Position numbers and translations under genes: made by a program | Notes under the pieces: model-generated | Databases searched by the model: none | What the model was told of the DNA's origin: nothing | Seen by the model: the letters and a program-made list of their open reading frames with translations, nothing else | Source: Rhizaria sp. SCN 62-66 | Lineage: Eukaryota | Direction of reading: 5' to 3' | DNA: 37,296 nt | Assembly: GCA_001724265.1 (NCBI GenBank) | Contig: MEDY01000310.1 | Location: forward strand, 1 to 37,296 | Part shown: piece after piece, positions 1-35,596 of the stretch | Layout: each line of letters opens with the position of its first letter | How positions within the stretch are numbered: the first letter of the stretch is position 1

Positions 1-1272
1 GCTGCTGGATGAGGTCCACGTTGCGCCCGCGGACAAGTTCTCCAAGTGCGTGCGCGTGACGCACTCGCGCTGCAAGCTTGGGCTCACGGCCACGCTTGTG
101 CGCGAAGATAGCAAGATCGAGGACTTGTACTTTATGCTGGGTCCGAAGCTCTACGAGGCCAACTGGAAAAACCTCAGCACGCAGGGCTTCATCGCGACGG
201 TGATGTGCCGCGAGGTGTGGTGCCCCATGTCGCCGCTCTTCTTCCGCGAGTACCTTGGTGCCGACACGCACAAGAAGCTGCTGCTAATGACGCTAAACCC
301 GGAGAAGTTGATGGCCATGGAGGTCCTCATGCGCGCGCACGAGCGTCGCGGCGACAAGATCATGATCTTCTGCGAGTCAATCGTTGCGCTGCAGCTGCTG
401 GCAAAACGGTTCAAGCGGCACTTTATTGACGGCACCGTGGCCGACCAGGAGCGCGTTGAGATCTTCCGCGAGTTCTCTTCCAACAATGGGCTCAACACTA
501 TCTTTATCTCCAAGGTCGGTGACAACTCGATCGACCTGCCCGACACCAACGTCATCATCCAGCTCTCCGCGCACTTCGGCTCGCGTAGGCAGGAGGCGCA
601 GCGCTTCTGATGTTTCGCTGTTCTTCAAAATTTGGCATTGTAATGTTCAACAAAGTATCATGTTTGTCCAAGTGTGTGTTGAACTCTCCAGTCTGACATT
701 ATTCACAAATCACATCATCACAGTTTTCTTCTTACTCCATCCCCTTGCTTTCTTGTTTTCTCCTCCGCCTCACAGGCCGCATTTTACGCCCGAAGTCTAA
801 GAAGTCAGGCACAATTGACGCGTACTTTTACTCGCTTATTTCGACCGACACGAGCGAGGTCAAGTACGCGACCAAGCGCCAGCGCTTTCTGGTCGACCAA
901 GGCTACGAGTACGAGGTGATGCTCAAGTCCGAGCTCGACCACTAGGAGCGCGCCGCTATCGTGAAGGAGCCGCTCATCCTCTCGAAGCCTGAAGACCAGC
1001 GCATGCTTTTGCTCGAGATCCGCGAGCATCAGGGCCCCACGGGCGCCTACGACCTGAGCGAGATGGCCGTCTTCGAAGCCACCGCCTCGCGCGGCTTCTA
1101 GTCCCGCCCCAGCGTCGCCGCCCCCACAAGCACAGCCACTCACACCGGTACTGGTGCTGGTGCTGGTGCTGGTACTGGCGCGGACGGCGCAGAGGAGGAG
1201 ACAAGCGAAGCCATGCTGGCCAGTCTCACCGGCGCTCGCGGCGGCGGCGAGCGCATCTTCAGGGAATACTGA
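1..1272 (+). CDS. ERCC3: TFIIH helicase/translocase XPB (Ssl2/Rad25), 5' partial; exons <1..~607 and 776..1272; two in-frame TAG codons (943-945, 1099-1101)
   Basis: The frame from base 2 reads LLDEVHVAPA (motif II), LGLTATLVRED (motif III), GPKLYEANW, SKVGDNSIDLP and HFGSRRQEAQR. After a pyrimidine tract and CAG at 775 it reads RILRPK...AYFYSLISTDTSEV...RQRFLVDQGY. Reading through two TAGs gives an XPB-like C-terminus (EDQRMLLLEI...MLASLTGA...IFREY) ending at TGA 1270-1272. The intron donor near 607 is not canonical. Confidence 0.95.
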
Positions 1273-2986
1273 AGGAGTGATTTCGTATTCAAGAGAGTTG
1301 TGGGTTCTGCATCACATATTACAACATACTAGTACTAGTATAATTTTGGAGATATAAGAAGCAGCATGATATATAGCCTATGTGTACATATCTGACTTTG
1401 CTTTAGTCCATGAAAAAATGTAATCTTTAATGCCGAACGTATGTTTGCGAAAGAACATATGTCCAGTTGTTCTATTGTGACTGCGGATCGATTTTGAATG
1501 AGCTATCTAATCATGAGCTATCACAAAATACGTTTCAGAGTTTTAACACTCGAGTGGCCCACCAAAACTTGTTGCGATTAAACCCGCGCGTAAGCGCAAA
1601 AGAGGCTGTAACTCAGCAACGTTATGAATGCCAATCGACTTTGCGAAGTGAAAAACAATATGTATTGAAGTGAAAAATAATTGTTAGTGCAAAGAAGATA
1701 AAGAATGCGAAGAAAATATATGTAGACGCAGTGCATATGTGCAACAGAGATATAGAGAACACAGAAAGATGCTTGAGGCTTAAATGTCAACAACAACACC
1801 AAAAAAAAAAGAGGAGGAAGAGATAAAACTACAAACAGAAACCACATCAAAAAAGATGAGCAGGCAAAAAGAAAACAAACAAAATAAAGAAGTATGCATG
1901 CACACAATCACAGAAACGCATGCACACGTATTGCAGATGAATCAGAAACTGTCGGTGTGGTCGTCGTTGTTTGGTGAGTGTGGATGATGGTGGTACGAGT
2001 ATGTAGCGATGCTGCTTGCGGCGGCCGAGAAAGGCGCACGAAACGTCGTCAGAGGTCGCAGAGCAGCGCGCACAGCGGGGTCGCCGAGGCGGCAAAAGCA
2101 GGAGCAAATACGTATCAATGACAGTGGCAGTCGTTGGAGCAGGCGTAGTGTAGCCAATAAGAGATTAGTGAGAAGAAAACGCGCGACGTAGACATTATCT
2201 CAAGCTGCAAAGCTGTCATGGAATGACCAAGTGCGTGATGTCATGTAAGGTGACGGAGTTGGAGCAGGTGTGCAAAGGTGTAGGTACAGAAATGCAGTCC
2301 TAATATCAAATGCATGCATCTGCTAAAAAAATGAGAGTTGTTGTGGTGATTGTTCAGAGTGTAAAGCGATAGCATTGTCAATGAGAGATTTTTTGTAGAT
2401 GTTAGTGTGGAATGTTGCTGCTCATGTGTTGTTGAAGCCAAACGATCCGCGGAGGTTATGCTACGTTCGTTGACACACAAACACGATTCTGGCCGCCACT
2501 CAGGCAGGCTTCTTGCTTTCTGTCTGGCTGCCGGCCTGCTGTGTGTTGCGACATGTACTGCTGCGGAAAGCAGTGTCACGACATGAGGCGCGGATCACAA
2601 GAAACAAGAACAAAAAAAAAGGTGTGCGGTCGATAGACGGGCGAGACAGGACAGGTCAAAACTAAATGGAACCAAACAAGGAAAGCAAAATGGGAAAAGT
2701 AAAAAGGAAACACAAAGCAAAAACAAAAGACGAAAGAAAAAAAGGACGTGGTGCGACATAAATAAAGGAGAAGCACACGCACGGACAAGGTTTTCTATCG
2801 TTGTCGTCGTTGTTGTTGAATGATGATTGATGAGTCGGTTTGTTGGGGAGGAAAGGGGAAGAGGCGCGCCGTGGGGCCCGCCAGCAAGACTAGTCTGAGT
2901 CTTCGCTGTAGTATTCATGGACATCAACAGAAACAGAAACAGGAACAAGGACGTTCAATGCATTCTCAACATGACGCGCTAAAGAC

Positions 2987-4634
2987 TCAGCCGCAGTGGA
3001 AGATCGCAAAGAGACAGCGCCAGTCGACGGTGGTGCCGTAGGGCTCCGCAGCGGCGGCCAGCACGGCTGCCAGACTGCTCTCGGCCTCGGCCCCGGCCTC
3101 GGCTCCGGCCTCGGCCGCCGCGGCATCGGCAGCGGTGTCCACCGAGGCCGGCGTCAACGACGCAGGGCTCGCAGTCGCGGTGCTCACAAACGCACTGTCG
3201 CTGCCGAGCCCGCCCTCGCGCTGCCGGCCGCCGGTGCCCGCAGCCATGTGGCTGTGGCTGTGGCTGTTGTAGTCGGGTTCCGTGGTGGAGGCGCCCGGCG
3301 AGTTGCCCGCGCTGGACGCAGCAGCGTCGGCGCTGACATCAGTGTCCGCGTCCACAGCAGCCTCGCCCTTGCCATCCACAGCACTAGGACCGTGGCCGTG
3401 ACCGTGGGCGTGGCTTGGGACAACGTCAGCGGCGGCATCGTCGCCGTCGCCAAAGTAGCGTGGCCCGCGCCCGGCGTCGATTACCACGCCCACAGCAGCG
3501 GCACCGGCACCGGCACCGGCGCCGGCAGCATTCGGACTGGCAGCACCGGCACTGCCAATTGCACCGTCGGCACGGACGCAGGTGCCGTTACTCATGCTGC
3601 CTGCGGTAGCGCCGGCGCTGATGGCCCCGGTGTTCGCAGCGGTGGCGGCGGCGGCGAGCTTGAGCTTGAAGCGCGTGTGCGCGAGGTCCACGAAGCAGTC
3701 GAGGTTGTGTGCGCTGCGCGGAGTTGCGATCGGGGGCGTCGCCGGCGGCGGCTTCGAGTAGCGGCCCGCGGCGTCGCGCATGTGCCGCCGGTCCGACGCA
3801 AAGCAGTCCAGCATAGCGCGCGCCGTGAGCAGGCGGAATGAGGCCAGGTAGACCGAGCCGGCTGTGACGTCGGGGCGCGCGGAGCAAGGGAAGTAGTCGC
3901 GCGCGCGGCAGGGAAACGGCAGCACCGAGTCGAAGTCGAAGACGAAGGGCTCGCCCGTCGCGGCGCAGCGCTGGACGAAGACGACGTGGTAGTCCCAGCA
4001 CACGGCGCTCTGTGGCGGGTTGGCCAGCGCCTGAAGGAACCACGCGACGGTGTTGGCCTTGTTGGAGACGAAGACGGCGAAGCAGTCGCGGTCGACGTCG
4101 AAGCCCTGCGCCGCGGCCCGCGCGCATAGCTGCCACACGTTCTCCTCGCTGAGCAGAGCGCAAAGCAAGACGTGGCGTGCGTGGGGGGTTAAAAGAGAGA
4201 GAGCATGGTGGGCGTGCAGAGACGTTGGTGAGCATCGAGCGTGTGTGTTGTCATGAAGATTGCGGAACAACCGGATAGGAAGCAACGAAACGAAGGCGAA
4301 GTCAAGATGGGGGATGGTGAGCTCAGGGCAAATGCGGAGGATAGACTGCTGTTTTCAGCGTCGCTAAAATGTAGGCTCGTCTGCTCGAGCTGCGCCGCGC
4401 GTCATAGCAACTTCGCGTCACAACATCGTCGCGTCATAGCAGCGTCGCGCTGCGCAGCGTGGCCCGTGGCGCGTGAGCCGCAGGCACGGGGGTGCGGCGC
4501 GCACGGTGGGGGAGCCGATCGACGCAGTGTGGCACAGCGGGGGAGGAGTGGGAGACGTACCAGTAGTGACTCGTGTATGAGAGAGCGTTGCGTGACTCGA
4601 AGCGGAGCAAGCCCGTGGGTGGTGGGGAAGCCAT
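2987..4634 (-). CDS. NTAQ1: Protein N-terminal glutamine amidohydrolase (Nt(Q)-amidase, WDYHV1); exons 4634..4561 and 4148..2987
   Basis: A GTACGT...CAG intron (4560..4149) joins MASPPP...YTSHYC to EENVW. Family motifs AVFVSN, VCWDYHVV, VFDFDSVLPFPC, FASDRRHM and NLDCFV are present. Stop is TGA. Confidence 0.93.
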
Positions 4635-5669
4635 AGCCCTCGTCACTGATGATGGGAGAGAGTCGTTTTGGGGGGGCTGCTTCGGTGAAAGACAGTCGAA
4701 GTAGGATGAAATAGTTAGTGAAAAATAGTAACAAAGTGTTGCATTAACAATGCAAACAAAATAATGCGTGTTGCAGGCGATGTAGCCTGCACCACAGCGT
4801 CGCAAATGCAAAAGTGTGGTCGCAGACAAAAACATGAGCGAAGTTCAGTCATGAAACAAGTGCTCTTTTGAGGGTTATACATCCCCGCAGGTAAATAATT
4901 TTTTGAAAACTAAATTAAATCAATAATTCATTGTGTAAGATGATGTCACAATTCAGAGCGATTGAATAATTATCGCGTGGCAGCACCTACGAAACGAACG
5001 TGATGACATCAATTGCATCGCACGTAAGAATCAAGAATGTGCAGTTTGTTAGTCTCACCAGGCACGGTCACCGACGCGACCTCCACGTCGGGCTCGGGTG
5101 GGCTAGGTTTTGATCTATGGACGCATTCGTAGCCATCAGAAGAGTTCAAATTTGCACGTATGCGAAAGAATTGCGACGCAAATATCTTGTTATTTTGTCG
5201 GTATCCCGAAAGTCATGCGGGAATATCTATCTTAGCTGATCAATACTTAAAACGCCCTTTGAAGGTCTCAGTGTCGCTCCTCTTCCCCTGCATTCAGACT
5301 CACCAAAGTCATTTGCTGCGTCTTTTCTCCCCAGGTTTCGCGTTTCCCAAGACCCCAGCTACACAGAGACTACGCTCTAAGAGCTACCCCAAGTAGGCTC
5401 CCCCCATGGGCTGTGACCAATCCACTGAGGCGGGCCAGCGTTGGCGCCGCACCTACGTACGCTCCGCTCTTCTGTCCGCGCTCCCGCTCCGCCAACATGC
5501 GCCGTCTTGACAGCCTTTGTGTATGTTACTGCTTATTTCTTGAGGCATATGCTCATTCTACTCTTGTTTTGCTTCCCCTTCGTTTTTCTCTCTTGCGTCT
5601 TTGAATGTGATTCGCCTTCTGCTTCCTCGTTCGCTTCCCTTTTCAATTCTCTGCGCGCTCGCTTAGGCC

Positions 5670-6521
5670 ATGGACTTCAACGCCGAGGGTCCGACACGCA
5701 CGTTTGACTACAACACGGGCACGACCAAGGGCGAGGGTGAAAAGTCAAAGTCCGGCAGCCGCGACATCACATTGGCCGGCATGGCCGCGCTGAGTGACAG
5801 CACCGGCAGCGGCGGAGGCGGCGGTAACGGCGGCGGCGGCGATGGCGGCGGCGGCAACGATGGTGGCGCCGCGACCATCCACACGGGCAACGACGACGAC
5901 GACGGCGGCGGCGGCCGCAAGCGGCGCAAGCGCGACGAGAAGTACAACAGCTCGTCGAACGTGTTCAAGAGCGACGCCAGCTTCTCTAAGGGCTCGCTGT
6001 GGAACGAGAAGGGCAAGCAGCTTGTCACAGACGACGAGCTGAAGAAGCTTAAGGTGTACCGCATGAGCGAGGTGAACCAGCACAACACGGACCACGACGC
6101 GTGGATCGTGATCAACAACGTCATCTACGACATCTCGACCTACCTGCCCACGCACCCCGGCGGCGCTGCCCTCATCACCGGCCTCTGCGGCCGCGACGGC
6201 ACGCAGGCCTTCTACCGCTCGCACTCGAACATCGTTAAGGCCGAGGAGGTGCTCAAGAAGTCGCCGCTGTGCAAGCGCGTGGGCCGCATCTTCGCGCTCG
6301 AGCACGGCGGCGGCGGCAGCAACTCGGGCTCCGTGCGCGGCAGCTTCTCAGACGTGGGCTCCATCGCCTCGATGGCCACCGGCGGCGGCGGCGCCACCCC
6401 CGGCGGCTCCAACACCGGCGGCGGCACCGACGGCAAGAAGAGCCGCAGCAGCAGGCGTGACCGCGACGGCGACCGCAAGTCGAGCCGCAAGTCCCGCCGC
6501 CGCGGGTCAGGCTCCGACTGA
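5670..6521 (+). CDS. Cytochrome b5-like heme-binding domain protein, soluble, with Gly-rich and basic low-complexity flanks
   Basis: YRMSEVNQHN...DAWIVINNVIYDISTYLPTHPGG...GRDGTQAFYRSHS carries the HPGG motif and a second axial His. Single ORF, stop TGA. Confidence 0.9.
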   Translation: MDFNAEGPTRTFDYNTGTTKGEGEKSKSGSRDITLAGMAALSDSTGSGGGGGNGGGGDGGGGNDGGAATIHTGNDDDDGGGGRKRRKRDEKYNSSSNVFKSDASFSKGSLWNEKGKQLVTDDELKKLKVYRMSEVNQHNTDHDAWIVINNVIYDISTYLPTHPGGAALITGLCGRDGTQAFYRSHSNIVKAEEVLKKSPLCKRVGRIFALEHGGGGSNSGSVRGSFSDVGSIASMATGGGGATPGGSNTGGGTDGKKSRSSRRDRDGDRKSSRKSRRRGSGSD

Positions 6522-7668
6522 GCTCCTGCTCTGTGACATCAGCAGCCCCCAATCAGCCCCGACTGAGCGCAGACGGAGTCTCAACTGGGCGTGGGTGCAA
6601 CTAAGCAACAATAGAGCAGAGCAGATGGCTGCAGAGCATGTGAGCCTCGATACAGCGCAATACAGAGTCCTGTCGTGGATGTGAGTGCCGCGCTGGACCA
6701 ACGGCGACACTGTGCGTTCCTTACTCTGGCTCTGGCTCTGGCTTTGCTCTGTGTTTGTGTGCTTGCTATTTCTGTCATGGAAAGCGGCGGTTCTCAAGTC
6801 CAGGCCAGGCGTGTCTGCGCCCTCTGCGTTGCTTCGGTGCCAAACATGCGGCCGACTGGCTTGCGTTAACAGTAACTTTATTTTTGTAACCCTTGTTCCC
6901 TTGTCAACTATTTCATTGTTCTGTTTATTGTTTGCTTCTTTTTGTTTTTCTTGTGACCCCCTTTTTGATCTGTTTAGTTGTCTTGTTCTAGCTCTGCCTC
7001 TGCCTCTGCCTCTCCTGCCTTGCGTTGTCTGTGTGTCTACTTGTTTGCCACGGCTGTCCTCACAAACTACCCTATCCTACTCACCGAAGCATACCGCTTT
7101 ACTCACCGGTTACTTGTCAATAACAACTCGGCGATATCAATCGCCAACGCAACAACACTAGCCCCGTACCACAGTGACTCTGGCTCTTTCGGTGACTGCA
7201 TGAAAGATTGCTGAGTTATTCACTCGCATGTCTGAGCGCTTTAGACGGTATGATCTAGACTGTTTTTGAGTTGCTCCTGCTGTTAAAATTGGTTGAGTAT
7301 CAGTGATAACCTTAGCTAAAACGTTAAATAGGTCAAAACAACAACATCGATGCTGGTGTTCATAATATAACTGCTTCAACACAAAACGACCTTCGTCCTG
7401 TGTGAAATGCCGTTTCTCACACCACACAACGTCTATCGTCTTTTAGAATACAGTGGAGTTATTTTCGCTCAGAAAAGTATTCAAATTGCCTAAACATTGT
7501 ATTACCGTCCTCGTTACAATTTGAACGACCAGTATAAATAGGTAAACAATCACACTTTCATCAACAACATGCCTTGACTGACCCTCACATTATTCGCTCA
7601 CAGTCGCGCAATCGCACCCTGGCTGTGGCACTGGCACTGGCACCTGCGCTCTCCAGCGCCCCGTGCCC

Positions 7669-9228
7669 TCAGTACCACTGCTTGCGCTGGGTCTCGCGCT
7701 GAGGCGGGAGGGCGTCGACGCGCTCGCCGCCCTTGAAGACGGCGGCGACGGGCGAGGCGCCCATCTGGTACACGACGTGTTCCCACTGCTCCGTGCCCAG
7801 CACCACAAAGTCGCCGCGCTTGCCGGGCGCAAGCGAGCCGTGAGAGCCGGCCTTGCCGAGCGCGTAGGCGGCGTTGAGCGTGGCGGCGACGAGCGCCTCG
7901 CCGCAAGTCATGTGCATGAGCACGCAGGCCATGTTCATCACCAGCGGCAGCGCGATGCAGTACGCGTTCGGGTTGAAGTCGCTGCCCAGCGCAACGGGCA
8001 CGCCCGCCGTGATCATCGCGCGCGCGGGGGGCGGGTGCAGGCGCAGTACGTAGGCCGTGGTGGGCAACAGCACGGCCGCGACCTTGGCCGCGGCCATGGC
8101 GGCGATGCCCGCGTCCGTCACGCACTCCAGGTGCGACACGGCGCGTGCGCCCACGGCCGCCGCCATCTCGGCCGAGTGCGTCACCGAGAGCTCGTCGCCG
8201 TGGAAGTTCGCCTGCAGGCCCAGCGCGCGGCCCGCCTCGAGGATGCGGCGCGCCTAGACAGAGCGAGAGAAAAGAAAGAGAAAAAAGGAATGATAAAGTT
8301 CATGCATGAGTGAATTTTTGACAATACAAAAATAAAATGACACGAAACAGCTAAAATCGTATTGCTGTTAAGCTATAGCTTGATAGCGTCTGATATGTGT
8401 AGACATATCTATGGCCCGTACCTGGTCGACGTTGAAGACGCCCGACTCGCAGAAGACGTCGATCTGCTCGGGGTCAATCTCGCCGGCCGCGGCAGCCGCG
8501 GCGAGGCGCGGGAGCTGCACGCTGACCACGTCCTCAGTCGCCGCCTCAGCCGTGGAGCCCTTGGGGACGGAGTGCGCGCCGCAATAGTTGGCCACCAGCT
8601 CGATGGGCTGCAGCGCCTTGGCGCGCTTGATCACGCGTAGCATCTTGAGCTCCGCCTCGGCCTCCAGCCCGTAGCCACTCTTGGCCTCGAGCAGCGTCGT
8701 CCCGGCGGCCAGCGCGCGCGCGAGGCGGCCCAGCAGCGCGTCGAGCAGCTCGTCCTCCGAGGCGGCGCGCGTGTGGGCCACTGTGAAGCCGATGCCGCCG
8801 CCCATGGCGTGGATGTCCATGTACTTGGCGCCCGCAAGCTTAAGGCGGAACTCACCGACGCGGTCGCCCGCCCAGACGGGGTGGGTGTGCGCGTCGACGA
8901 GCCCCGGGATGACGGACTGGCCGGGGAACGCGTGGTCGTGCTCGGGTGCGAAGGGGAACTTGGCCAGCTCGGCCGGCAGCTCGGCCGCGGGGCCCGCGTA
9001 CAGGATCGAGCCGCGGTCGCCAATAATCAGCGCGCCGTCGGACACGCAGTCGACGTCGTCCTGCGCCGTGCCCGTCTTGAACTCGACGGCGCGGTCGCGG
9101 GAGATGCACACGAGGCGCGAGGCAGTCACGCGCACGCGAGGCTGCTCGGGCTGCTCCGACTGCGCGGGCTTGGTCTGCGCCGCCGAGGGGCAGCAGGCGG
9201 GGGTGCCGGCGTGAGGCGCGCACGACAT
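7669..9228 (-). CDS. AMDHD1: Imidazolonepropionase (histidine catabolism, HutI family, eukaryote type); exons 9228..8422 and 8253..7669
   Basis: Motifs PGLVDAHTHPVWAGDR, GGGIGFTV, EAKSGYGL, GAHSVP, DVFCESGVF, FHGDEL, SHLE and ALGSDFNPNAYC. GTACGG...TAG intron 8421..8254 in phase 0. Stop TGA. Confidence 0.95.
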
Positions 9229-12330: not shown

Positions 12331-13127
12331 TTAGCCCCAGGGCCACCACCAGCTCCGGCCGCCGGTGCCCGCGCCAGTAACTGCGGCGGCCGCGGGCGTG
12401 ACTGCTGCGGCGGCCGCCTTGGCGGCGGCCTCGGCGCGGGCCTGCTCCTCACCGGTGACGTCGATGCGCGAGAAGTCGAGCAGCTTAAAGAACTTGGGCT
12501 GCGCGCGAAAGGTGAAGACGTGCGGCGTCTCTGCGTCGGCCGCGGCGGTCGCGGCGGCCAGCATCTGCTGGGCCGCCTCGGGCTTCTTGTTGCGCAAACC
12601 GGTGAGGTCAAGGCAGAGGTTGAACTCACGCACGGCGGACTTGAGCCCCACAACGGAGCCGTCGTTGTACATGTCGCGCAGCAGCGCCGAGAGCGTAGCC
12701 GAGTACGCCATCGTGTTGAAGGCCTGCACGCACGAGACGGCGGAGACCTGCGCAGGATCACAAAGAGACACGAAAGATGGGTTTATGTAATAGTTATCAA
12801 AATGAAATAACATAAATGCTGTTTATATATGATTCATATCTGCACAGATGGTTTGATACCAAAGTAGCGCGATTATATCGAGTTTCACGATGCATAAGCG
12901 GCGGTCAGCGCGGAAGGCGCACGTACGTTGTCGGTCTCGTTCCACTGGACGAGCCAGTGCTCGCGCTTGCCGTAGGGCACGCGCTGGAACACGCGCGGGT
13001 CGTCGGGGGACGCGCAGTTAAAATACTCCAGCGAGGCGCTAGACACCGTCGGCGTCGCCGCAGCGCCGGGCGCCGCAGTGGCCGCGGGGGCGTCCTGGGG
13101 CCCGATGGACGCGGGCGCTGAGGACAT
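12331..13127 (-). CDS. Emi1/C22orf39 (DUF3128)-like small protein; exons 13127..12927 and 12747..12331
   Basis: Phase-0 GTACGT...CAG intron and GC3-biased codons. The spacing SCVQAFN...MY.DG...FNLC...HVFTFR resembles the DUF3128 pattern by recollection only. Stop TAA. The gene is solid; the family call is tentative. Confidence 0.55.
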
Positions 13128-13709
13128 TGAGAGAGTCTGCCGATAGGGATAAACACAAAGAGCCGTAATATGAAATAAGTATAGTGTACAAATACTCTTA
13201 GAACAACATATGTGTTAACAAGGAAACTAGTGGTCGATGGGGAAATGTAGAGTTCAAGGTCGCAGTTTGACGAACAAGCCCCTTGCTCTGGCAACCCTTG
13301 GTAACGCTGGACAGTGTAAAACCTCCTTCTTGCAACTCCTCAAAACAGAATATGGACATGAACAGCGAACTGAGCATATCTCATGAAGACATGTATAATG
13401 TATTCGTGGTTAGTCATTGACCGATGCCAGTGGTCTTCAATCAAGCGCAACCAGGGTCACGTACAGTCCCACCGCAAGTCGACTCGACAAACGGACTCGC
13501 AACGGGACGGAGCCCAAGACAGCACGAGATAGCACACACGCAGGCACACATACAAACAGTATTCTCTTCCCTAACAGGCAGCGCAGCGGTTGTCATGATC
13601 GCGTTCGCACCAACTCGCTCGCCTATCGTTCACACATCCTTGCATCACATGCATCACATGATGCATACTCGTACAGAGCACGCAGCACACTTATAGAGCG
13701 CTCGCGCAC

Positions 13710-14443
13710 TTACGCGAGGGCGACGCCGGCCTGCATCTTCTTCTGGACGTCGGCGCCGGTGCCGGCAGCCATGGGCGGGATCGGCGGGACGGGCGAGAGC
13801 ATCTTCTTGCGGAACTCGTCCTGCGTCATGTCCGCGAACTGGTTCACGCCCATCTTGAACGAGCCGTTGTTGGCGTTGTTGCCGCGGATCTTGTCGAGGT
13901 TCTCGCGAAAGATCTTGAAGCGACGGGGCTTCTCATCGGGGGTGTACATCTTCTTGAAGCGGTCGATGAACTTCTTGAACTCTAAACAACACGGAAGGAG
14001 AAGAAATGAAGAGAGGGGAAAAGAGGATACAGAGAAACAAATGTGAGCGCGATTGCAGATATTAAGCGAACTAAAGCAATAACAGCGGTAAAAGATTAGA
14101 AAATACGATGACAACCGAGAGCAGCGCGAGCAGCTCGGGTGGAAAGCGGGGGAAAGCAGGGCAACGTACCGCCCTTGTAGTCGGGCTTGGCCGTGGGGTT
14201 GTCCTCAGCGGCAGGCGCAGAGGGCGCAGAGGGCGCGACGGGAGCCTCGGGGGCGGCGGGGACCGCAGGGGAGGCCGGGGCAACGGGCTCGGCGGGCTTG
14301 GCGTCGGCGACGGGCGCGGGGGGCGCGACGGGGGCCTCGGGGCCGCCGACGATGGGGGCGGGCGGCGCAGGCGCGATCACGACGGGCTCAGCAACGGCCA
14401 GCGCTGCAAGGCACGCCAGCACAAGAAGCAGCAGCTTCATCAT
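13710..14443 (-). CDS. Secreted protein: signal peptide + Pro/Ala-rich linker + cathepsin propeptide inhibitor domain (I29), no protease domain; exons 14443..14170 and 13981..13710
   Basis: MMKLLLLVLACLAALAVA is a signal peptide. EFKKFIDRFKKMY..DEKPRRFKIFRENLDKI...FKMGVNQFADMTQDEF contains ERFNIN-like and GxNxFxD motifs. Phase-1 GTACGT...TAG intron. Stop TAA. Confidence 0.85.
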
Positions 14444-18099: not shown

Positions 18100-18969
18100 T
18101 TAAGAGCGGTCGACGAGGATCTTCTGGATCTGCTGCATCTTGCCCAGCAGCTCCTTAACCTTGGCCTTATCCATCTCGAACTGCAGCGTCGACGCTGCGC
18201 CAGACTCGTCGTGCGTCTAATGAAAACAAGGACAAAAACAACAATCGCAGCGAATATGCAAAGAAGGATGACATTGGAGTGAGAATAAGTTGGGTGATTT
18301 GAAACAAGACAAATCGATAAAGTGTGTTGTTGGCGCCAAGTAAACAAAGCGCGTACCTTGAGCTGCATGAGCGCGACGGGCTCCATCATGCCGGCCTCGT
18401 CTGCGCCATGCTGCTGCTGCTGCTGCGCGCCGGCGGAGAGGAGGTCGACGCGCCAGTTGACGCCCTCGAGCGTGTTGTTCCAGATCGAGCGCTGGACCAG
18501 GAACTCGTGCGCGGTGGCCTGCTCGGCCTTCCACACCTTGGCCCAGGCCGCCGTGTCGGCGTCAGCCGTGACGCCCAGCGCGGCGAGGTGCGCGGATAGC
18601 TCCTGCCAGCCCCAGGCCTGCGAGGCGGCGTGACGGAACACGGCCGCGTACTCGGCCAGCAACGCCTGCACCTCGCCCAGAGACTTGTCGGGGAAGACAG
18701 AGTCCTTAACGTCCGCCGCGGTCACGCCGGAGTCCTTGTAGAAGCTGCGGGGCGCGTGGGGCGGGGCGGAAACGAGCGGGTTGGGATGAAAGAGGGGGAA
18801 AGCAAGTGTGAGGGTGGGAACGGACAAGATTTGAAGAGGTTAGTGAATAGTCTATAGTGTGTGGGCAAGCTAGGCTAAAAAATGGGAGAATTACGTACGT
18901 GATCTTGCAGACACCGTTCAGGAAGGCAAAGAGGAGCTTGCCATTGAGCTCAAGCGGGGTAAGGCTCAT
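18100..18969 (-). CDS. COMMD1: COMM domain-containing protein 1; exons 18969..18899, 18744..18357 and 18216..18100
   Basis: The spliced product GKLLFAFLNGVCKITFYKDSGVT...VFP...KVWK...SIWNNTLEGVNWRVD...PVALMQLK...LQFEMDKAKVKELL parallels COMMD1 (GKPLSGLLNAL...SRWN...SWRVD). Two canonical introns. Stop TAA. Confidence 0.88.
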
Positions 18970-24348: not shown

Positions 24349-26565
24349 ATGGCCAGCTTTCAAGGCGAGGTCATTGACAGCGTGCACATGGGCCACGCGG
24401 ATGAGCGTGAGCAGGCCGAGAACGCCCTGCGCTTCGGTGCTCACCGCGATCCCAGCCAGGCCAACGAAGGCTTCCGCAACTTCATCCGCAACTTCAAGGA
24501 CGCATCGGGCCAGTTCATCTACCGCGACCAGCTGTTAGCGAACTTTGAGCAGGGCTCGTACTTCCTCCGCGTCGTGCTCGACGACCTCCACACCTTCGGC
24601 TCGTGGCTCCGCAGCGCGCTGATGGAGAGCCCTGAGGTCTACATGCCGCAGTTCGAGCTCGCGGCGTGCCAGGTCATCGCCACCACGCCCGCCACGCGCC
24701 GCGACATCAAATCCGTGCAGCACATCCAGATTGTGCTGACGGGCCAGGCCGCGCCGACGCCGCTGCGCAACCTCGAGTCAGCGCAGGTCTCCCAGCTCGT
24801 CGCGCTGCAGGGCATCGTCATCGGCGCCACGCGTCCGCGCGTCAAGGCCACGCGCCTCGCCCTGCGCTGCCGCGGCTGTGGCGCCTCCCGCTTTGTTGAG
24901 GCGCGCGGCGGCTTTGGTTCGATCCAGCGCCCGCGCCGCTGCGAGGCCGGGCAGCTGCAGGAGGGCGCGGCGCGGTGCCCGCTTGACCCCTACGAGGACG
25001 TGCCCGAGCACTGCGAGTTCGTTGACACGCAGATGCTCAAGCTGCAGGAGCCGCCGGAGTCTGTGCCGACGAGCGAGATGCCGCGCCACATGACGCTGTC
25101 GTGCGAGCGCTACCTGGTGAACAAGGTGAAGCCGGGCACGCGCGTGACGGTGCTGGGGGTGCACTCGACCTACTCGGCGCGCGTGTCGGACCGCAACATG
25201 AACAACATCAGCGACTCAGGCATCCGCATCCCGTACTTGCGCGTCGTGGGCATCGACCAGAACAGCGAGGCCAACGACATCCTGCTGGGCAAGCTGACGC
25301 CTGAGGACGAGGAAGAGCTGCGTCAGCTCGTCGCGCAGCCAGACATCTACGACAAGATCGCTAACTCGATCGCGCCCGATATCAAGAGCCACGACGACAT
25401 CAAGCGCGCCATCGCGTGCTCGCTCTTTGGCGGCTCGCGTAAGTCACTGCCCGACGGCATGCGGCTCCGTGGTGACATTAACGTGCTACTGCTCGGCGAC
25501 CCCGGTGTGGCCAAGTCCCAGTTCCTCCGCTTTGCGCACGAGGCGGCGCCCATCTCGGTCTACACCTCTGGCAAGGGCTCCTCCGCGGCCGGTCTGACGG
25601 CCTCGGTGGTGCGCGACCCGGGCACGGGCGAGTTCCACCTCGAGGGCGGCGCCATGGTGCTGGCCGACGGCGGCGTCGTCTGCATCGACGAGTTCGACAA
25701 GATGCGCGAGCAGGACCGCGTCGCGATCCACGAGGCTATGGAGCAGCAGACCATCTCCATTGCTAAGGCCGGCATCACAACAATCCTCAACTCGCGCACC
25801 TCGGTCATCGCGGCCGCGAATCCCGTCTTCGGCCGCTACGACGACTACAAGTCCGCGACGGAGAACATCGATTTTCAGGCCACGATTCTGTCGCGTTTCG
25901 ACCTCATCTTCATTATCCGCGATCTTCAGGACTTGCAGCTGGACCAGGCGCTCGCGCAGCACGTGCTCCGCGTGCACAAGCGCGAAGGCAACGCCGCGCC
26001 GCAGCTCGCCGAAGGGATCATTCCTGTGGAGAAGCTCAAGAAGCTCATCGCCTTCGCGCGCCGCAAGGCCCCGCGCCTGACCGAGGACGCGGCCGAGCTG
26101 CTGAGCAACCGGTACGTGCACTTCCGCCGCGAGCTCGAGGAGAAGCGCCGCGCGTCAGCCGACGGCACGGCCTCGGTGATCCCGATGACTGTGCGCCAGC
26201 TCGAGGCTCTGGTGCGTATCTCTGAGTCGCTAGCGCGCATGGAGCTGAGCGACGTGGCCACTGAGGCGCACGTTGAGGAGGCGCTGCGCCTCTTCAAGGT
26301 CGCCACGATGCAGGCCGCGTCGTCGCCCTACGGCGCGGCGCCCGGCACGGCGCAGTTCGAGGACCAGCTGCGCGCGTGCGAGGCCGCGATCAAGGTGCTA
26401 GTGCCCTTCGGCGCCACCACGCGCACGGCCGAGGTGCTGCGCGCGCTCATGAGCCAGCAGAACTTCAGCGAGAGCGTCGCCAAGCGGTGCCTTGAGATTC
26501 TTGTCACCAGGGGCGAATTCAAGTACCGCGAGCAGAAGAAGCAGATCTCGCGCGACAGGAGTTGA
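24349..26565 (+). CDS. MCM5: DNA replication licensing factor MCM5, intronless CDS
   Basis: Motifs RCPLDPY, LKLQEPPESVPTSEMPRH, RGDINVLLLGDPGVAKSQ, LEGGAMVLADGGVVCIDEFDKMREQDRVAIHEAMEQQTISIAKAGITT, TILSRFD and TVRQLE. Stop TGA. Confidence 0.97.
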   Translation: MASFQGEVIDSVHMGHADEREQAENALRFGAHRDPSQANEGFRNFIRNFKDASGQFIYRDQLLANFEQGSYFLRVVLDDLHTFGSWLRSALMESPEVYMPQFELAACQVIATTPATRRDIKSVQHIQIVLTGQAAPTPLRNLESAQVSQLVALQGIVIGATRPRVKATRLALRCRGCGASRFVEARGGFGSIQRPRRCEAGQLQEGAARCPLDPYEDVPEHCEFVDTQMLKLQEPPESVPTSEMPRHMTLSCERYLVNKVKPGTRVTVLGVHSTYSARVSDRNMNNISDSGIRIPYLRVVGIDQNSEANDILLGKLTPEDEEELRQLVAQPDIYDKIANSIAPDIKSHDDIKRAIACSLFGGSRKSLPDGMRLRGDINVLLLGDPGVAKSQFLRFAHEAAPISVYTSGKGSSAAGLTASVVRDPGTGEFHLEGGAMVLADGGVVCIDEFDKMREQDRVAIHEAMEQQTISIAKAGITTILNSRTSVIAAANPVFGRYDDYKSATENIDFQATILSRFDLIFIIRDLQDLQLDQALAQHVLRVHKREGNAAPQLAEGIIPVEKLKKLIAFARRKAPRLTEDAAELLSNRYVHFRRELEEKRRASADGTASVIPMTVRQLEALVRISESLARMELSDVATEAHVEEALRLFKVATMQAASSPYGAAPGTAQFEDQLRACEAAIKVLVPFGATTRTAEVLRALMSQQNFSESVAKRCLEILVTRGEFKYREQKKQISRDRS

Positions 26566-27711: not shown

Positions 27712-30700
27712 TCACTCGGAGTCGTCGGAGTTGGTGCTCGAGTCCCACTCGCCACTGGGCTCCTCGTCGCTCTCGTGCTCCTCCTCAGCCTCCTCGGCGG
27801 CGTCCTCGGCGGCCTTGGCCTCGGCGTCAGTAGCACCCGCGGCGGCGGCGGCGGCGGCGGCGGCAGCAGCCTGCTTGCGCGCGATGCGCTCACGGCGCGC
27901 GAGCTTGCGCTTGACGGAGCCGGAGGAGAAGGCCGACTTGAAGCCCGTCTGCTGGTCAAGCTCGCGCGCGCGGGCCGCAATCTCGGGCTTGGCCTCGTCA
28001 AGCGCGGCGAGCCAGCGCGCCGCCATGTGCTTGCGGCGGCCGCGCGTGAGCGGCCACACATCGTCGAAGTTGGACTCGTTGACGTAGTTCTGCGTGATGG
28101 CAAGCGTGTCATCGAAGTTCCACACAGCGTGCCACCAGTTGCCCGGCACGAAGATGGTCTCGCCGGGGTAGTGCACGGCCTCGTACATGACGTAGTCGGC
28201 GCCCGCCGCGTTGGCCGACGCGATGTACTCGCGCAGCCGCGGCAGGATGTGCGTGAACCAGCCCTGTGGCGACGTCCAGGGGGACGGACCCTCGCCCTTG
28301 TACCGGTGCTCAAAGGCCGAGCCGTTGGCGATAGACGCGGGCACGTTGGGCGAGAGCAGCAGCCAGTACTTGCGGCCGTGCAGCAGCGCGTTCCACGCGT
28401 TGGTGTTGAGCGGGTCCTTGTGCATGAAGGAGCCCGAGCCCTGTGCGCCGATGCACAGCCAGCGCTGCGGCGGACGGCGCGAGAAGGCCACGTGGTCGAG
28501 GAAGTCGGTGGTGAAGAAGTGGGGGCGGGTGTAGTCCTGCTGCATCTCGGTCGCCACGTCGATCACCTCGAGCTGCGACTCAAACAGGTACAGTGGCTGG
28601 TCGTCGCGCTCCGTGTACAAGTACTGCATGAAGTGCTTGAGCTTGGCAGTCAGGCGGTACTCCTGGGGGTCCTTGCCGACCTTGAGGCGGCAGTTCTTGT
28701 ACTTGCCCGTGGACAGCGTGGTGCCCGTGTACTTGTGCATCTCCCAGCCCTCGGTCATGCCCGAGATGAGGCACGGCAGCAGCGCGCGCTCATACGCCGC
28801 CTGGAACTCGCCGTACGACATGTCCTTGTAGTTGAAGCGCGGGATGGGACGGAAGCGCGAGAAGTCCACCGGCGTAATCTCCTTGCTGCGGCCGCGCGGC
28901 ACCGACGCCACAGCGGGCAGCGCCGCGTCGGGCTTGAGCTGCGCCAGCGCCGAGTAGGCCGCCGAGGACTTGGGGAAGACGTAGACGGCCTCGCCGCCCA
29001 TGGGCGTGGCCAGCCCCTGGAGCGCGGCAAAAGCCTCAGGCAGCAGCACCTGCTTGAGCCCCGCGGCGGGCGTCGCGTCCACGGGCCGCGTCACATGCGC
29101 GTCGCCCACGAACGGGTTCACGGGCGCGTCCAGCGGGCCCGCGGCGACGGCGCTGCCCGGCGCGACGCGGCAGTGCGCGGCTTCGACCAACGCGCCCCAG
29201 CGCGCCAGCGCAGCGCGCAGCAGCGGGATCTCGGAGGCGTATGAGAACTTGTCCCAGTCCTTGAGGCCCCAGCGCGGCTCCTTCTTGCGGCGCAGCACGT
29301 TGAAGATGGCGTCGATGTCGCTCTGCTTCGACTGCGGCACGTAATCGCGCAGGAAGGTCCCGTACACGGCGTCGCGCACGGACCCAGGCTGAATAGACGC
29401 GTTTTCAGACTGCACCTCACTTGCGCGGGCGGCGGCGTCGCTGCTCCCCTATGTGTCTGAGTCGGCCTCGGCCGCGGCGGCAGCGGCGGCCGCGGCCTTG
29501 GACTTGGCGGCGTCGGCGGCGTCGACGTCGTCGTCGCTCTACTCGTCGTCGGAAGACGCGTCCGAGTCGGTGGAGCTGTCCTCGTTGCCCGAGAAGCCCT
29601 CCCAGCCCTCGTACGCGAAGGGCTTTTTCTCCGGCTCCGCCGCCCAGTCGCCGTGGTTCAGCGGGTGGTTGCGCGCGCGCTCCTCAGCCGCGGCGCGCTC
29701 CTCGGGCGACATGAGCTCCAGCGGCTTGACTTTTTTGCCGCTCGCGTCGAGGTGCGGGCGCACGAACTTCCACACGAAGCCGTCCTTGGCGTTCATCGCG
29801 TGCGCGGCCGCGGCGGCCTTGGGGAAGCGCTTCTCGAGCATCTTGAGCCAGCGCCAGGCCATGTGCTTGCGCTCGACGCGGATGTCGCGCCACACAAGGG
29901 GGAAGTTGCTCATGTTGACGTAGTTTTGCGTCACGGCGTAGGTGTCGTCGAGGTTGATGACGAAGTGCCACCACGAGCCGGGCACGAAGATGGTCTCGCC
30001 GGGGTACTGGATGAACTCCTGCAGCCCGTACTTGTTCCCGTTGGCCATGATCCACGCGCGCAGCTTCGGGTACACGCGGTCGTACCACCCCACGCCCTCG
30101 TTCTCGATGTCGGGGTCGAGGTCCTCGTCGGCCCAGAACTGCTTGCCCTTGACGATCGCCTCGGGTGTCTCGGGCGGGAACAGGATCCACACCTTGCGGC
30201 CGGCGATGACGGTGTTCCACGCGTTGGTGTTGAGCGGGTCGATGTGCATCGTCGTGCCAGAGCGCTCGGGGCCCAGGCACAGCCAGCGGTGCGGCGGGCG
30301 CCGCTCTGCGCTGCAGTAGTCGAACAGGTCCTTGGAGAACCACGCGGGGCGCGCGTACTCGGCGAAGATCTTGCGGATGTTGGAGTTGGCGTTGAGCTGC
30401 GACTCGAAGAGGTAGACGGGCGAGTCGTCCTTCTGCGTCGCCGCGTACTGCAGGTAGTACTTGGTCTCGAGCCCGATGCGGTAGCCCTCGTCGTCCTTGC
30501 CCACCTTGACGCGCTCGTCGCGCAGGAACGACTGGTTCATCGTCGCGAAGGTCGCCTTATTGATGGGCCACTCGTCGGCGAAGCCGGCGATTAGGCAAGG
30601 CTTGGACGGCTTCTCGTACTTCTCCACGAACCACTCGTACGAGACGTCGCGGAAGTCGAAGCGGTCGACGCCCATAACGCCGTGGTAAGTCGAGCCGGCG

Positions 30701-31026
30701 ACGTGGCACGCCTCGATCTCGTGCAGCACCTTAAGCCACTCGGCGCGCTTGTTGCGGAACGTCTTGACGTAGCCGTACTTGTGCCAGTCAGAGGGGCGCA
30801 TCGAGGACTTGCGGCGCTTGACATCGAGCAACTTGGCCTCCACCACCTCGGGGTCCTGGTCCGGCACGTAGTCGCCCTTGAGCGTGTCGTAGTGGCCGTC
30901 CTTGTCGGGGAAGCGGTGCGGGAAGTCGGCCGGGTTGAGGGCCGCGTTGCGCGCCTTGAGCTTGGCGACGAGCTCCTCGCGCGAGTGCGTCTCGCCCGTG
31001 GTCAGCTCGTACGGGTCGTAGGACAT
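27712..31026 (-). CDS. JMJD6-like JmjC oxygenase with two tandem JmjC modules in one frame (1104 codons if TAG at 29539-29541 and 29449-29451 is read as sense)
   Basis: ORFs 29539..31026 and 27712..29415 are each JMJD6-like (VKVGKDDEG / LKVGKDPQE; DDSPVYLFES; RRPPHRW; SGTTMHIDPLNTNAWN / SGSFMHKDPLNTNAWN; PGETIFVPGxWWH; xTQNYVN). They share a frame and are separated by 123 nt of GC3-biased codons. The second ORF has no ATG before its conserved N-terminus. Final stop TGA. Confidence 0.85.
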
Positions 31027-31854
31027 CTGGGCAGCAAGGGATTAGTGCATGGGTGAAATCAGGGAGGTTAGAAGTGAGGTTGAGGTCGAGAGAAAGAGTG
31101 CGGAAGTGTGGAGGCAGATTCGATGAAAGGAGCAGGCAGCAGAGAGCGAACGAAACTCCGAGTCGATAATAGTGGCACAAACGTGACGGATTCACAAAAA
31201 ACGCCAATAATGCGCAAAATAACACCCATGGGCTGACATGAACGAGTGTAACTTGGACAGGCTTGAAAGCGTCGCGGTGGGCTCGCAGCGAGGTGCGCAG
31301 TGCGGGCAAACCCAAACACACGTGACTTGCAGCGCCAGTGGAGGTTTTGCAGTCAATCGCGCGACAACAAGCGGCATATCAAAAAATAAATTGAATAACA
31401 AAACAAAGACGTAAAATGCGCTTGGTATGCACGCGTCATACCCGCTTCATGGACGATAGAGACCAGATTGACAAGGGCGATAATAGTCCTCGATCGCCTC
31501 GACTCGTCACCGCTCCGGCCGATGCCGGACGACAACAGCGAGAAGCGAGCGATGGCCTGGATTTTTTGCGAACCCTAGGGCTAGGAACCACCTTGGAGTG
31601 ATTTAATTTTGACGATTGAAGAACGGTTCAACCTCGCTAGTTTGCTCGTTAAAGTGTCTGTACACTTGATATATGGTAGAATATTGAGTCTATTTTGACG
31701 CACTTTAATAACATCTCTCCAACTATTGATATTTTCTTGCAGCCACTTCCGCTTAGTCGACCCATTTCCAACAGACGAAGCAACGTGTCGATTCGAACCA
31801 CAGCACACCCTCTGCTCCTGTTCGCAGTCTTCTGCGTAAGCTCTCAGAGCCACC

Positions 31855-34800
31855 ATGGATGCATATGGCGTTCCTGCCCTCCAGTTTGGTACGTTTTTAT
31901 CGAGAACCCCGACGCTCTTTACTTTGAAATGCATTGCCAAGTGCTCCCAGCTTACCATTCGACCTTCTTATGCTCCCACTTCTCTATCCACATGCAGGCC
32001 GCTTTGATCTGCGCCTGACTGGTACTGTAAAGACTGGCGCGCTGATGGTTCTCCCGTCTAGCAAGCGCTCCAAGCGCCAGAAGTTTCTCTATGGCGACGG
32101 CGCGGGCTCACTGGGCTGCTACGTGATGAGCGACACGGACAACCAGATGACTGAGCTGTGGAAGCTTCCCCTGGCCGGGAACAAGCCCGCGACGTCCCTC
32201 GCACTCGGCGGCCTGCGCGACCCGAAGGACCAGGTTTACGTCTCGAGCGAGAAGACCATCACGGGCGTGAAGAAGACCGGCAAGGAGTTTTTCCGCTTCC
32301 CGACGTTACTGTTGACTGCGATCACGCAGCTGCGCGTGCACAACATGTCGCTCTTCGCCGTCACCGAGTGCACCTACACGCGCTTCACCGAGACCAAGGA
32401 GTCCGAGGTCTTTACCGCCAGCGACCGCATTACTGTTCTGCAGCCGCTAGTGGGCCGCTACGTGCGTCCCGCGGCGAACCCGGCCGCCCAGGCGACGGTG
32501 TTCCCGCAGGTGCGGCTCTACCCCTCGGTGCTCAGCACGCCCGAGTCGCTCGCGCCCACCGTCCTGCTCGCCACGGCGGACCGCTACGTGTACATGGTGC
32601 GCGAGGGCAGGGCGCTGGCGCAGGCGCGGCTGCCCGCGGCCGCGGCGTGCGTGTGCGAGGTGCCTGCGCCCGCGGGCGTGGTTCCAGGCCCCCGCGACGG
32701 GGCCGGCAAGGAGGACACAGACGCCTCGCAGACCACGCGCTACATCGTCTTCGGTAAGCTTTTTTTCTTTGATAATAGTCGCTTTGTTATTATATTTTAA
32801 GCTCTTGTTTTGTATTTTGCTGATTTTGCTGATCGTTCTGCTTCTCTTCCTTCGTCGTTCACTGTTTCTGCTGTTCTCTCTCTCGCAGGCACGACCGAGG
32901 GCCACCTGGGCCTGCTCGTCGCCGACGTCGCCGCGGGCACCCTCACAGTGGGCCCCGTGGTGTTCCTGCACCGACCCACGGCGGCGGCGCTGAGCTCCGC
33001 CGCCGCGCGCTCCGCGGACGCCGTCTTTGACAGCCTCGTCGCGCTCAACGCAGACGCCGACCCCGGCGCTGACGAACGCGGCAAACCCCGTTCACACCGT
33101 CACGGCGGCGCCACCACCAGCAGCGGCGGCAGTGGCGCGGGCGCGGGTGTAGGCCGCACTGCCGAGTCCCTGACGGACGCCATCACGGGACTCGCGGTGG
33201 CCGACATCACCGACGCGGCCAGCGCGCTGGAGCTCGTGGTTGCGACCGCGAGCGGCGTCATCCAGGTGCTCTCGCTGTCGCCGCAGACGGCGTTCGTGGC
33301 CACCGTTGAGGCCGACGCCAGGGTTACCGCGGCCGCCGAGACTAACAGCGCAGACGCCGTCTCTGCCGCTGCGGCCGCTACTGCCTGTGGCTCCGCGTCC
33401 GTGCTCGCGATCGCGCCGACCTCGGTGCTGTGGCATCGCGCGCTCAACGACCGCGTGACCAACGTCGCCGTGGGCTGTCTGTATGCGCGCGAGCGCCACG
33501 ACATCCTCGTCACGACCTTCTCCGGCAAGCTTCTGCTGTTTTCCACCGACGCTGACTCGAGCGTGGCCAGCCTGCGCGAGGCCGCCAAGGTCGCGCTGGC
33601 CGCCGCCAAGGCCAAGACCAAGGCCAAGATGGCGAGCGACCTGGCGGCGGGCGAGCTGCGCGGCAGCGGCGGCGGGATCGGCTTCGGGATGATGACCCGT
33701 GCGGAGGAAGCCGAGTGGATGGACCAGTACTGCTTCGACACGCTGCGCAGCGACATCGGCTCGCTCAAGCAGATGATCGCTGAGAAGCGCGAGCAGTTTG
33801 CGCGCGCCAATGAGGCCGGGCTCGTCGCCTTTAACACGCCGTTGAACCTGCGCGCGACGCTGACACTCAACGCCGACGCGGGCGTGCACGTGCTCGCCGT
33901 CGAGTCGGAGCTCGTGCTCGACTCGCTCTACATCTACAGCACCGCCAGTGTTTCGTGCACGCCCACGACGACCGCGCCGGAGATGCTGCTGTCGCACACG
34001 CCCGTGCCCACGCAGGGCGGCGGCAGCGGCGCCGCCGTGGGCGGGGCGGGCGCTGCCGGCGCCGCGGGCGGCGGCAACGCGGCGGGCGGCGGCGGCAGCA
34101 GCAGCAGCGCCGGCGGCGGCAACGCGGCCCCGCAGCTGCTGCTGACGGTGAAGCTGGCCCCCAACACGCAGCGCTTTGAGGCGCACGTGCGGACGCTGGA
34201 GCGCGCGGGCGCGGCGGGCGAGCTCACGGTCATGGTGATGCCCAAGATGGAGCCCAAGCGCTCGCAGCGCTTCACGTTCCCCGTGCTCCCGCTTTCGCTG
34301 CACGCGCCGCTCGCGGACCCGGCGACCGGGGAGCCCGTCACGGGCCTCGCCGCGGCCAGCAACGGCGCCAGCGCCAGTGCCAACGCCGGCGCCAGCGCGG
34401 GCGTGAGCACAAGCGCGGTGCTGCTAGCGCCGGCCGTGGAGGCGCGCTTCACCACGGGCCGCGTGAACGTGCTCAGCGTCACTGGCGCGACGCTGTCGAC
34501 GACGCTCACGCACCGCTGGCTGCGCGGGCTGCTTCCGGGCCTGCCCGCCACGCCCGTCTTCGTTGACACCGCGGCCGCGGCGCTCGTCGACGGACGCAAG
34601 CCGATCGCGATGCTGCCGCCCGCGACGCCGCTCTCGGTCGCGGGACTTGTTGACCCCGCGTGCGCGTTCTACCAGGCCACGGACGTGCCTACCGTGCTCG
34701 GTGTCATTTACGGCGCAGGCAAGGCTGTCTTCGTTAGGTATGCTTACAACATTTTGAACAAGAATTTATCGTGTCTATCTTGCTTCAATCATAACCCCTT

Positions 34801-35596
34801 GAATTAAATCTTATTTCACTCTTTTATATTGCGATTTTTCTATTTTTAGCGATTCCGTTGCGACGATCGCTGTTATCAAGGACTTTTTGGCGCAGCAGGC
34901 GACTCTAGAGCGTGTGCGTCTCGCAACCTCTCTTGTCCTCGGTCCCAGTTCACTCTCGCTCTCGCTCTTCCGCGCAAAGCCGCTGCTCTACAAACAGGTT
35001 TGTCTAATCTCGATCTATCTTTATAACATCTGTTGCTTGTCCGCTCGCTGTGCTCTTTCATTAACTCGTACACTCACACACTATGCTACGTCTTTGTTAC
35101 TTTTGTTCTTCAGCTCGAACTGCCCCGTTCCGCGGCGATGGGCCGCGCTCTGGCGGACGCTGTGGCGCAGGATCCGTCCCTGCGCCCGCTGCTCTCCCCG
35201 GACCTGCAGACGTTGCTGCAGGTGGCCGAGTCGCCCGAGGGCGTCGCTGCGCTCGCCGCCGTCGCCGCGCGCACCGCGAAGACTCCCGGCAGCGGCGGCA
35301 GCGCGGGCAGCGGGGCGGCTGGAGGAGGCTACCCTACGCAGGTGCCCGCGCCCGAGGGGGCGAGTGCAGACGAGAAGGTCGCTGCCGTGCGGCCGCTGGC
35401 CTTCCCGGCGCCCAACGCGCCCGACGCGGCGACGCGCGGCAAGGACTGGATCTTGGCCGCCTATGACTCGTGGTTCAAACTCTCGGGACAGGCGCCGCGC
35501 AACAGGGACGCGCTCGGCCGACTGCTCACGCCTGAAGGGTATGACTGGGAAGAGATCGAGCGCGTCTTCAAGGCCGCTGCTGCTACACAGAACTAA
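31855..35596 (+). CDS. BBS7: BBSome subunit BBS7; exons 31855..31888, 31998..32753, 32889..34737, 34850..34997 and 35114..35596
   Basis: Motifs LMVLP...QKFLYGDGAG, GVKKTGKEFFRF, ILVTTFSGK, VRTLE...PKRSQ...LPLSLH, HRWL...LP, SDSVATIAVIKDFLAQQAT and AYDSWFKLSG match BBS7 landmarks. Four canonical introns keep the frame. Stop TAA. Confidence 0.9.

Follow-up and report, generated by a model that had tools for sequence, protein, structure and literature searches.

The window analyzed here is a 37,296-nt stretch of contig MEDY01000310.1 (assembly GCA_001724265.1, Rhizaria sp. SCN 62-66). It carries the 3′ part of a gene for the helicase XPB (ERCC3) and, on the opposite strand, a JMJD6-like gene, and coding-looking frames in both contain in-frame TAG codons. 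A sequence-only reading of the window had proposed from these codons that UAG is a sense codon in this organism, and it is this proposal that we evaluate. All results are based on assembled sequence and on comparison. The window is eukaryotic in character, its exons having a GC content at third codon positions (GC3) of 0.78–0.96, with AT-rich spacers and introns; the six GT-AG introns are 112–195 nt long with a GC content of 0.28–0.41. The gene list of the sequence-only reading is borne out by Pfam matches for XPB, NTAQ1, cytb5, an amidohydrolase, WDR12 (NLE plus WD40), a PANTS/DUF3128-like protein, TAF7, COMMD1, TMC, MCM5, JmjC (twice) and BBS7, and the four in-frame TAGs of XPB and the JMJD6-like gene were all found in frame at the positions reported for them.

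In-frame TAG codons in two genes

The XPB part of the window comprises the following features:

2..607, + strand: XPB (ERCC3) exon; the window begins within the gene
608..775, + strand: XPB intron; acceptor canonical (polypyrimidine tract, cacAG|GC), in-phase GT or GC donor absent
776..1272, + strand: last XPB exon, closing at TGA 1270-1272
943..945, + strand: XPB TAG 1 (DH*ER), in frame with TGA 1270-1272
1099..1101, + strand: XPB TAG 2 (GF*SR), upstream of the terminal motif

The first of these exons matches positions 1–145 of the Pfam family ERCC3_RAD25_C (E 5.6e-60), and positions 146–226 correspond to residues 1–86 of the last exon, so that the match spans TAG 1 at residue 57. The alignment with the closest XPB relative, P0002 (78% identity over exon 1), is gap-free on both sides of TAG 1, reading SELDH-A-LKDAI in P0002 and SELDH-*-ERAAI in the window. 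When compared by itself with a profile built from 24 XPB sequences, the peptide encoded 3′ of TAG 1 falls on the correct family columns (hhalign E 0.0036). Beyond TAG 2, the end of the frame reads ...LASLTGARGGGERIFREY, and a C-terminal LxxLTG...F/YxEY motif stands at the extreme end of the protein, as it does in P0002, P0004 and L002. Of 110 XPB tails, 60 match a loosely defined pattern of this motif, and its top BLASTP match in P0002 is that protein's own C-terminus (residues 1006–1020 of 1021, E 0.10).

Metagenome contigs were also scanned with XPB exon 1, which gave 16 loci. One of these, L001, is an independent metagenome contig of 3,496 nt that is identical to the window at 414 of 426 nt (97%) and reaches upstream, supplying the XPB N-terminus that the window does not cover. 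Its XPB frame runs for 735 codons from the ATG (GC3 0.89) and contains a single stop, a TAG at codon 119. Around this codon KTEVDP*VVRFITRY in L001 matches KTEIDPEVIRFITRN in P0002 residue for residue, and the codon lies within one continuous Pfam match to Helicase_C_3 (residues 44–168, E 9.9e-30). Since a stop at codon 119 would cut about 90% of an essential helicase, termination there would destroy the gene. Homology therefore stays in frame past the XPB TAGs, firmly at codon 119 and at TAG 1 and more weakly at TAG 2.

These sites bear directly on gene-specific leaky termination, in which the code would be standard and a few TAGs would be passed by programmed readthrough. TAG is rare here and four of the five TAG sites lie in tails or linkers, as such a mechanism would allow, but XPB would need three readthrough events in succession, one of them as early as codon 119 in a helicase that is essential. 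Leaky stop codons are characterized by a C at position +4 and a CARYYA-like context. At the five sites the +4 base is G, T, A, G and G, never C, and a CARYYA-type context occurs at none of them. In addition, no TAG ends any of the 13 genes of the window, and we consider programmed readthrough very unlikely.

The second gene with in-frame TAGs is defined as follows:

27712..31026, − strand: JMJD6-like gene, one 1104-codon frame from ATG 31026 to TGA 27714-27712
29539..29541, − strand: JMJD6 linker TAG 1 (DE*SD), opposite D in P0260/P0408, P0132 and P0133
29449..29451, − strand: JMJD6 linker TAG 2 (DT*GS), opposite A/T in P0260/P0408

The frame encodes two complete JmjC/cupin units (JmjC and Cupin_8 of Pfam each match in two stretches) and has a GC3 of 0.94; both TAGs fall in the linker between the units. 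This linker is open in three relatives, namely P0408/P0260 (81% identity) and P0132 and P0133 (about 50%). One open reading frame (ORF) covers both JmjC units in P0132 (1080 aa) and likewise in P0133 (1078 aa), each with a score above 1000 bits; in P0260/P0408 the frame leaves unit 1, crosses a linker that is acidic and rich in Ala, and enters unit 2 at its conserved start. In the window, unit 2 retains 578 open codons with 73% identity to P0258, and no ATG is found between TAG 2 and its conserved N-terminal motif. An arrangement of two tandem JMJD6 genes, with a TAG ending the first, was rejected because the linker is open in these relatives and unit 2 lacks an ATG ahead of that motif. The protein has the appearance of an internal duplication, its N-terminal and acidic-tail motifs being repeated; the fused two-unit form is kept in relatives at 50–81% identity, and single-unit forms (P0259 and P0262) exist as well.

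In the nearest relative, JMJD6 is represented by two ORFs, P0408, which ends ...YVPQSKQV, and P0258, which begins VIRRKKEPRW. Both are homologous to the window protein up to the last and from the first residue, respectively, and the gap between them corresponds to seven window residues. P0408, P0258 and the MCM5 of this relative (P0138) are each recorded on a 29,930-nt contig. We infer that P0408 and P0258 lie on one contig and are split by an in-frame stop at a site other than those of the window; the window residue opposite this site is D. The UAG-sense trait is probably common to the closest sampled relative (75–81% protein identity), whose JMJD6 is split elsewhere. A practical consequence is that standard-code gene callers cut such proteins, dividing the window JMJD6 into 500, 29 and 578 residues and that of the relative into 575 and 542.

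Could the TAGs be lost or altered in RNA, either through splicing of very small in-frame introns or through U-to-C editing? The XPB intron provides at least one unusual splice site in this window. Against removal at the RNA level, the alignment to relatives is gap-free over XPB codon 119 and XPB TAG 1, and the TAG flanks have exon-like GC (0.62–0.77, compared with 0.28–0.41 in the six GT-AG introns); the JMJD6 linker itself has a GC content of 0.77 as against the same intron range. The GTAG...TAG span in this linker measures 94 nt, which is no multiple of three. A location of the TAGs inside introns was rejected on the basis of gap-free collinearity and exon-like GC, and RNA-level loss or editing appears to us very unlikely. 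Other TAGs in long ORFs were discarded as candidates: those at 8256 and 15831 are intron acceptors, and that at 5664 lies upstream of the ATG.

Alternatively, under the standard code the TAGs could be assembly errors, strain-level nonsense alleles or marks of pseudogenes. The data are metagenome assemblies and the XPB donor looks broken. Moreover, given the codon usage here, 73% of random single-base nonsense changes would yield TAG, which undercuts the argument, made in the sequence-only reading, that the interrupting stops are only ever TAG. Artefact or decay is nevertheless difficult to reconcile with five sites from two independent assemblies free of frameshifts, with exon GC3 values of 0.78–0.96, or with the 578 open codons and 73% identity to P0258 that JMJD6 unit 2 keeps; furthermore, XPB is normally present as a single copy and is essential. 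Over 142 codons, the differences between the window and L001 are synonymous in 8 cases and non-synonymous in 4, with no frameshift; this substitution pattern is unlike that of a decaying copy, and the gene looks to be under purifying selection. We regard errors or decay as highly improbable.

Gene ends and the reading of UAG

Gene ends were located at the following positions:

1270: TGA, XPB
2987: TGA, NTAQ1
6519: TGA, cytb5
7669: TGA, amidohydrolase
11852: TGA, WDR12
17784: TGA, TAF7
26563..26565, + strand: TGA, MCM5; UGA as a true terminator
27712: TGA, JMJD6
12331: TAA, PANTS-like
18100..18102, − strand: TAA, COMMD1; UAA as a true terminator
22625: TAA, TMC
35594: TAA, BBS7

The tally of the sequence-only reading holds for eight TGA ends, four TAA ends and no TAG end among 13 genes, but its fifth TAA, that of the I29 gene, is doubtful. 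On the minus strand, this TAA (13710) overlaps a perfect GTAAGT donor-like site (region 13690-13730). The I29 gene may continue into the ORF 13214-12885, in which case its true end would be a TGA at 12885. Whichever I29 end holds, TAG ends none of the 13 genes (TGA 8–9, TAA 4–5), a small sample.

That UGA and UAA act as true terminators can be seen from the ends of conserved domains. The Pfam MCM5_C match covers positions 3–59 of 59 (residues 704–761 of 764) and ends three residues before the TGA of MCM5. For COMMD1, the last exon (18216-18100) matches positions 38–64 of 64 of COMM_domain, with the TAA eight residues further on; this match is a fragment (E 0.013), under the family cut-off. Altogether, for XPB, JMJD6, MCM5 and COMMD1 the TGA or TAA falls where homologues or domains end. 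Inside the modelled exons (6,535 codons) the in-frame stops comprise four TAGs and no TAA or TGA; given that the exons were bounded partly by TAA and TGA, the zero counts for these two codons are a partly circular test. The same exons contain 8 TAGs in the +1 frame and 11 in the +2 frame, and UAG accounts for about 0.06% of codons. Base composition 3′ of the stops is no clean discriminator, GC being 0.33–0.65 after true stops and 0.66–0.77 after the TAGs.

The gene ends also bear on an ambiguous code, in which UAG would be sense inside genes and a stop at true ends, depending on context, as in Condylostoma and the karyorelicts. Precedents for such codes are described in PMC4967479 and 10.1101/2022.04.12.488043, only 13 gene ends were sampled here, and the position of JMJD6 TAG 1 at the ends of single-unit homologues makes a short and a long product conceivable. 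On the other hand, TAG ends none of these 13 genes, and L001 codon 119 and XPB TAG 1 are either distant from or 5′ of conserved sequence whose translation is needed. In sum, context-dependent use of UAG seems to us unlikely.

We conclude that UAG is probably translated as an amino acid, with UAA and UGA kept as terminators, which would make the organism a new member of the UAG-only class. The proposal of the sequence-only reading is supported by L001 codon 119, by homology past the XPB TAGs and by three relatives that are open in the JMJD6 linker. Decoding would be carried out by a tRNA whose anticodon is CUA, as no other anticodon would read UAG without also reading UAA, and eRF1 would be blind to UAG. 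The residue inserted at UAG would probably be polar or acidic, Glu or Gln.

Several points weigh against translation of UAG or limit the case for it. All five TAG sites, in two genes, occupy variable polar positions and none stands in a conserved column. Five TAGs of five interrupting stops would arise by chance with P about 0.2 under this codon usage, and the exclusivity of UAG, in the sense that it never terminates, rests on 13 gene ends. JMJD6 TAG 1 is only a few residues from the ends of the single-unit homologues P0259 and P0262, and the stop in the JMJD6 of the nearest relative was deduced from ORF ends and equal contig size, the codon itself not being seen. As for XPB, the match of the terminal motif 3′ of TAG 2 is weak on its own (E 0.10), and the gene model is not wholly consistent, with its non-GT donor and in-frame TGA. 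Finally, there is no CTA-anticodon tRNA among the six tRNAs of the window (Lys-CTT x3, Ala-AGC x2, Ala-TGC), and neither the window nor L001 contains a gene for eRF1.

Residue, organism and known codes

Because no TAG stands in a conserved column, the residue is not readable from the alignments. In the column of XPB codon 119, 22 homologues show G (5), E (4), S (4), R (2), Q (2) and one each of T, P, N, K and D, with no hydrophobic residue among the 22, while the flanking columns are L/I/V. At the four TAG sites that can be aligned, the residues of the closest relatives are E, A, D and T/A, and none of the five sites, a small number, is at a hydrophobic column. Judged from these alignments, the residue leans towards Glu or Gln, and Leu, Tyr and Trp appear disfavoured. 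The sequence-only reading had leaned towards Gln; the polar, variable character of the sites that it described is confirmed, but Gln itself is not established and Glu fits at least equally well.

The affinities of the organism were examined with MCM5. The window protein (P0137) is 75% identical to P0138, and its other matches are at or below 56%, save two shorter, partial ones at 59%. A maximum-likelihood tree was built from 36 rows out of 120 matches listed, comprising the top 12 together with further environmental and nameable matches. In this tree the P0137/P0138 pair falls in a clade with Paulinella (two species), both chlorarachniophytes and environmental sequences, with a Shimodaira–Hasegawa-like approximate likelihood ratio (SH-aLRT) support of 97, and the foraminifer lies outside that clade. 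The best named matches of XPB are Paulinella and Amorphochlora. The organism, an uncultured single-celled eukaryote, is probably a filosan cercozoan, a placement that, given a single gene and biased sampling, is probable rather than proven.

Two of the other XPB loci from metagenomes end or splice at TAG. The TAG of L002 was rejected as an in-frame sense codon, being an intron acceptor. The locus L003:4272-7403 (+ strand) comes from a more distant relative (XPB identity 62%, GC 33%), and its XPB closes at a TAG followed by AT-rich sequence, TAG there being an ordinary stop. It follows that the code change is not common to relatives that distant.

UAA and UAG almost always shift meaning as a pair, and reassignment of UAG alone is recorded for fewer than ten lineages (PMC11687900), only one of them rhizarian. 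In this one, exLh (Sainouroidea, Filosa), UAG encodes Leu; 384 in-frame UAGs, which cluster at conserved Leu columns, were found over 71 genes, and the 71 genes end in UAA (56) or UGA (15) (PMC5304391). The window organism resembles exLh in that UAG alone is reassigned and UAA and UGA remain as stops (here TAA or TGA in 13 of 13 genes), and both are probably filosan Cercozoa. It differs, exLh being compared by its published description, in having only four TAGs in 6,535 codons and none at a hydrophobic column; UAG at conserved Leu columns, as seen in exLh, occurs at none of the five sites, few as these are. The window organism is thus unlike exLh in codon frequency, and probably also in the residue.

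In Iotanema spirale (Fornicata) and Protocruzia tuzeti, UAG encodes Gln and UAA is still a stop (PMC5304391, PMC11687900). The UAG-only pattern is the same, and a polar residue is plausible here also; these are, however, unrelated lineages, and their Gln was demonstrated by conserved columns. UAG has been reassigned to Leu or Gln, with several origins, in phyllopharyngean ciliates and to Ser in Scotinosphaera, and an oligohymenophorean ciliate reads UAA as Lys and UAG as Glu (PMC11687900, PMC10553269). As in the window organism, UAG evolves apart from UAA in these cases, and the oligohymenophorean provides a precedent for UAG as Glu. In contrast to the organism studied here, they are ciliates or green algae, and the oligohymenophorean reassigns UAA as well, a codon that ends four or five genes of the window. 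Condylostoma, Parduczia and the karyorelicts likewise have stop codons within genes, but there several or all stops are ambiguous and also end genes, whereas TAG in the window is internal only and ends none. A report on this lineage was not among the matches listed in the literature on UAG or the genetic code in Cercozoa, Sainouroidea or Rhizaria, or on stop codon reassignment in wastewater.

Taking codon use, residue and placement together, we tentatively suggest, at a little below an even chance, a second, independent rhizarian UAG-only reassignment in a lineage of filosan Cercozoa that would be free-living and comprise two or more species, with Glu or Gln rather than Leu at UAG and at an early stage. 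The early stage is suggested by the frequency of UAG, about 0.06% of codons, and by its occurrence only at unconstrained positions, which matches the prediction of codon capture for a codon that has just re-entered genes.

A further UAG-only case would be useful in that genomic contigs are present in several public metagenomes, with RNA-type libraries alongside, so that the tRNA(CUA), changes in eRF1 and the residue should be recoverable without culturing. The very low usage of UAG would offer a chance to study a freed stop codon as it re-enters genes. In a word index, the segment 24000-33999 is nearly complete (0.82–1.00 of words) in four sequencing runs, three of which are labelled as bioreactor or wastewater metagenomes and one of which has no organism label; the window may stem from one of these four. 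RNA-type runs contain 0.18–0.28 of the sampled words of the same segment, a figure that has no bearing on expression.

Other features of the window

The in-frame TGA that the sequence-only reading had placed at the end of XPB exon 1 is real (608-610) and lies inside an intron without a GT donor. This intron, of 168 nt with a GC content of 0.39, is similar to the six GT-AG introns of the window, and Pfam positions 145|146 adjoin across it. No RNA structure pairing the intron ends was found (z = +1.2). Three sets of boundaries are possible: T|GA...AG, with which the invariant Gly in motif VI of the helicase would be replaced by Cys; TG...CA; and CT...AC, with which the consensus QRLGRILR would be restored.

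At the other end of the window, the last ORF (35027-35596, + strand) is probably the final exon of BBS7 and not a separate gene, a putative link being a phase 0 GTTTGT...TTCAG intron (region 34960-35130, + strand). An Rfam search of the window gave six tRNAs and nothing else. These form an array of six genes in 845 nt (36068-36912, + strand) in the order Lys-CTT, Ala-AGC, Lys-CTT, Ala-TGC, Lys-CTT, Ala-AGC, and the three Lys copies are equal in score.

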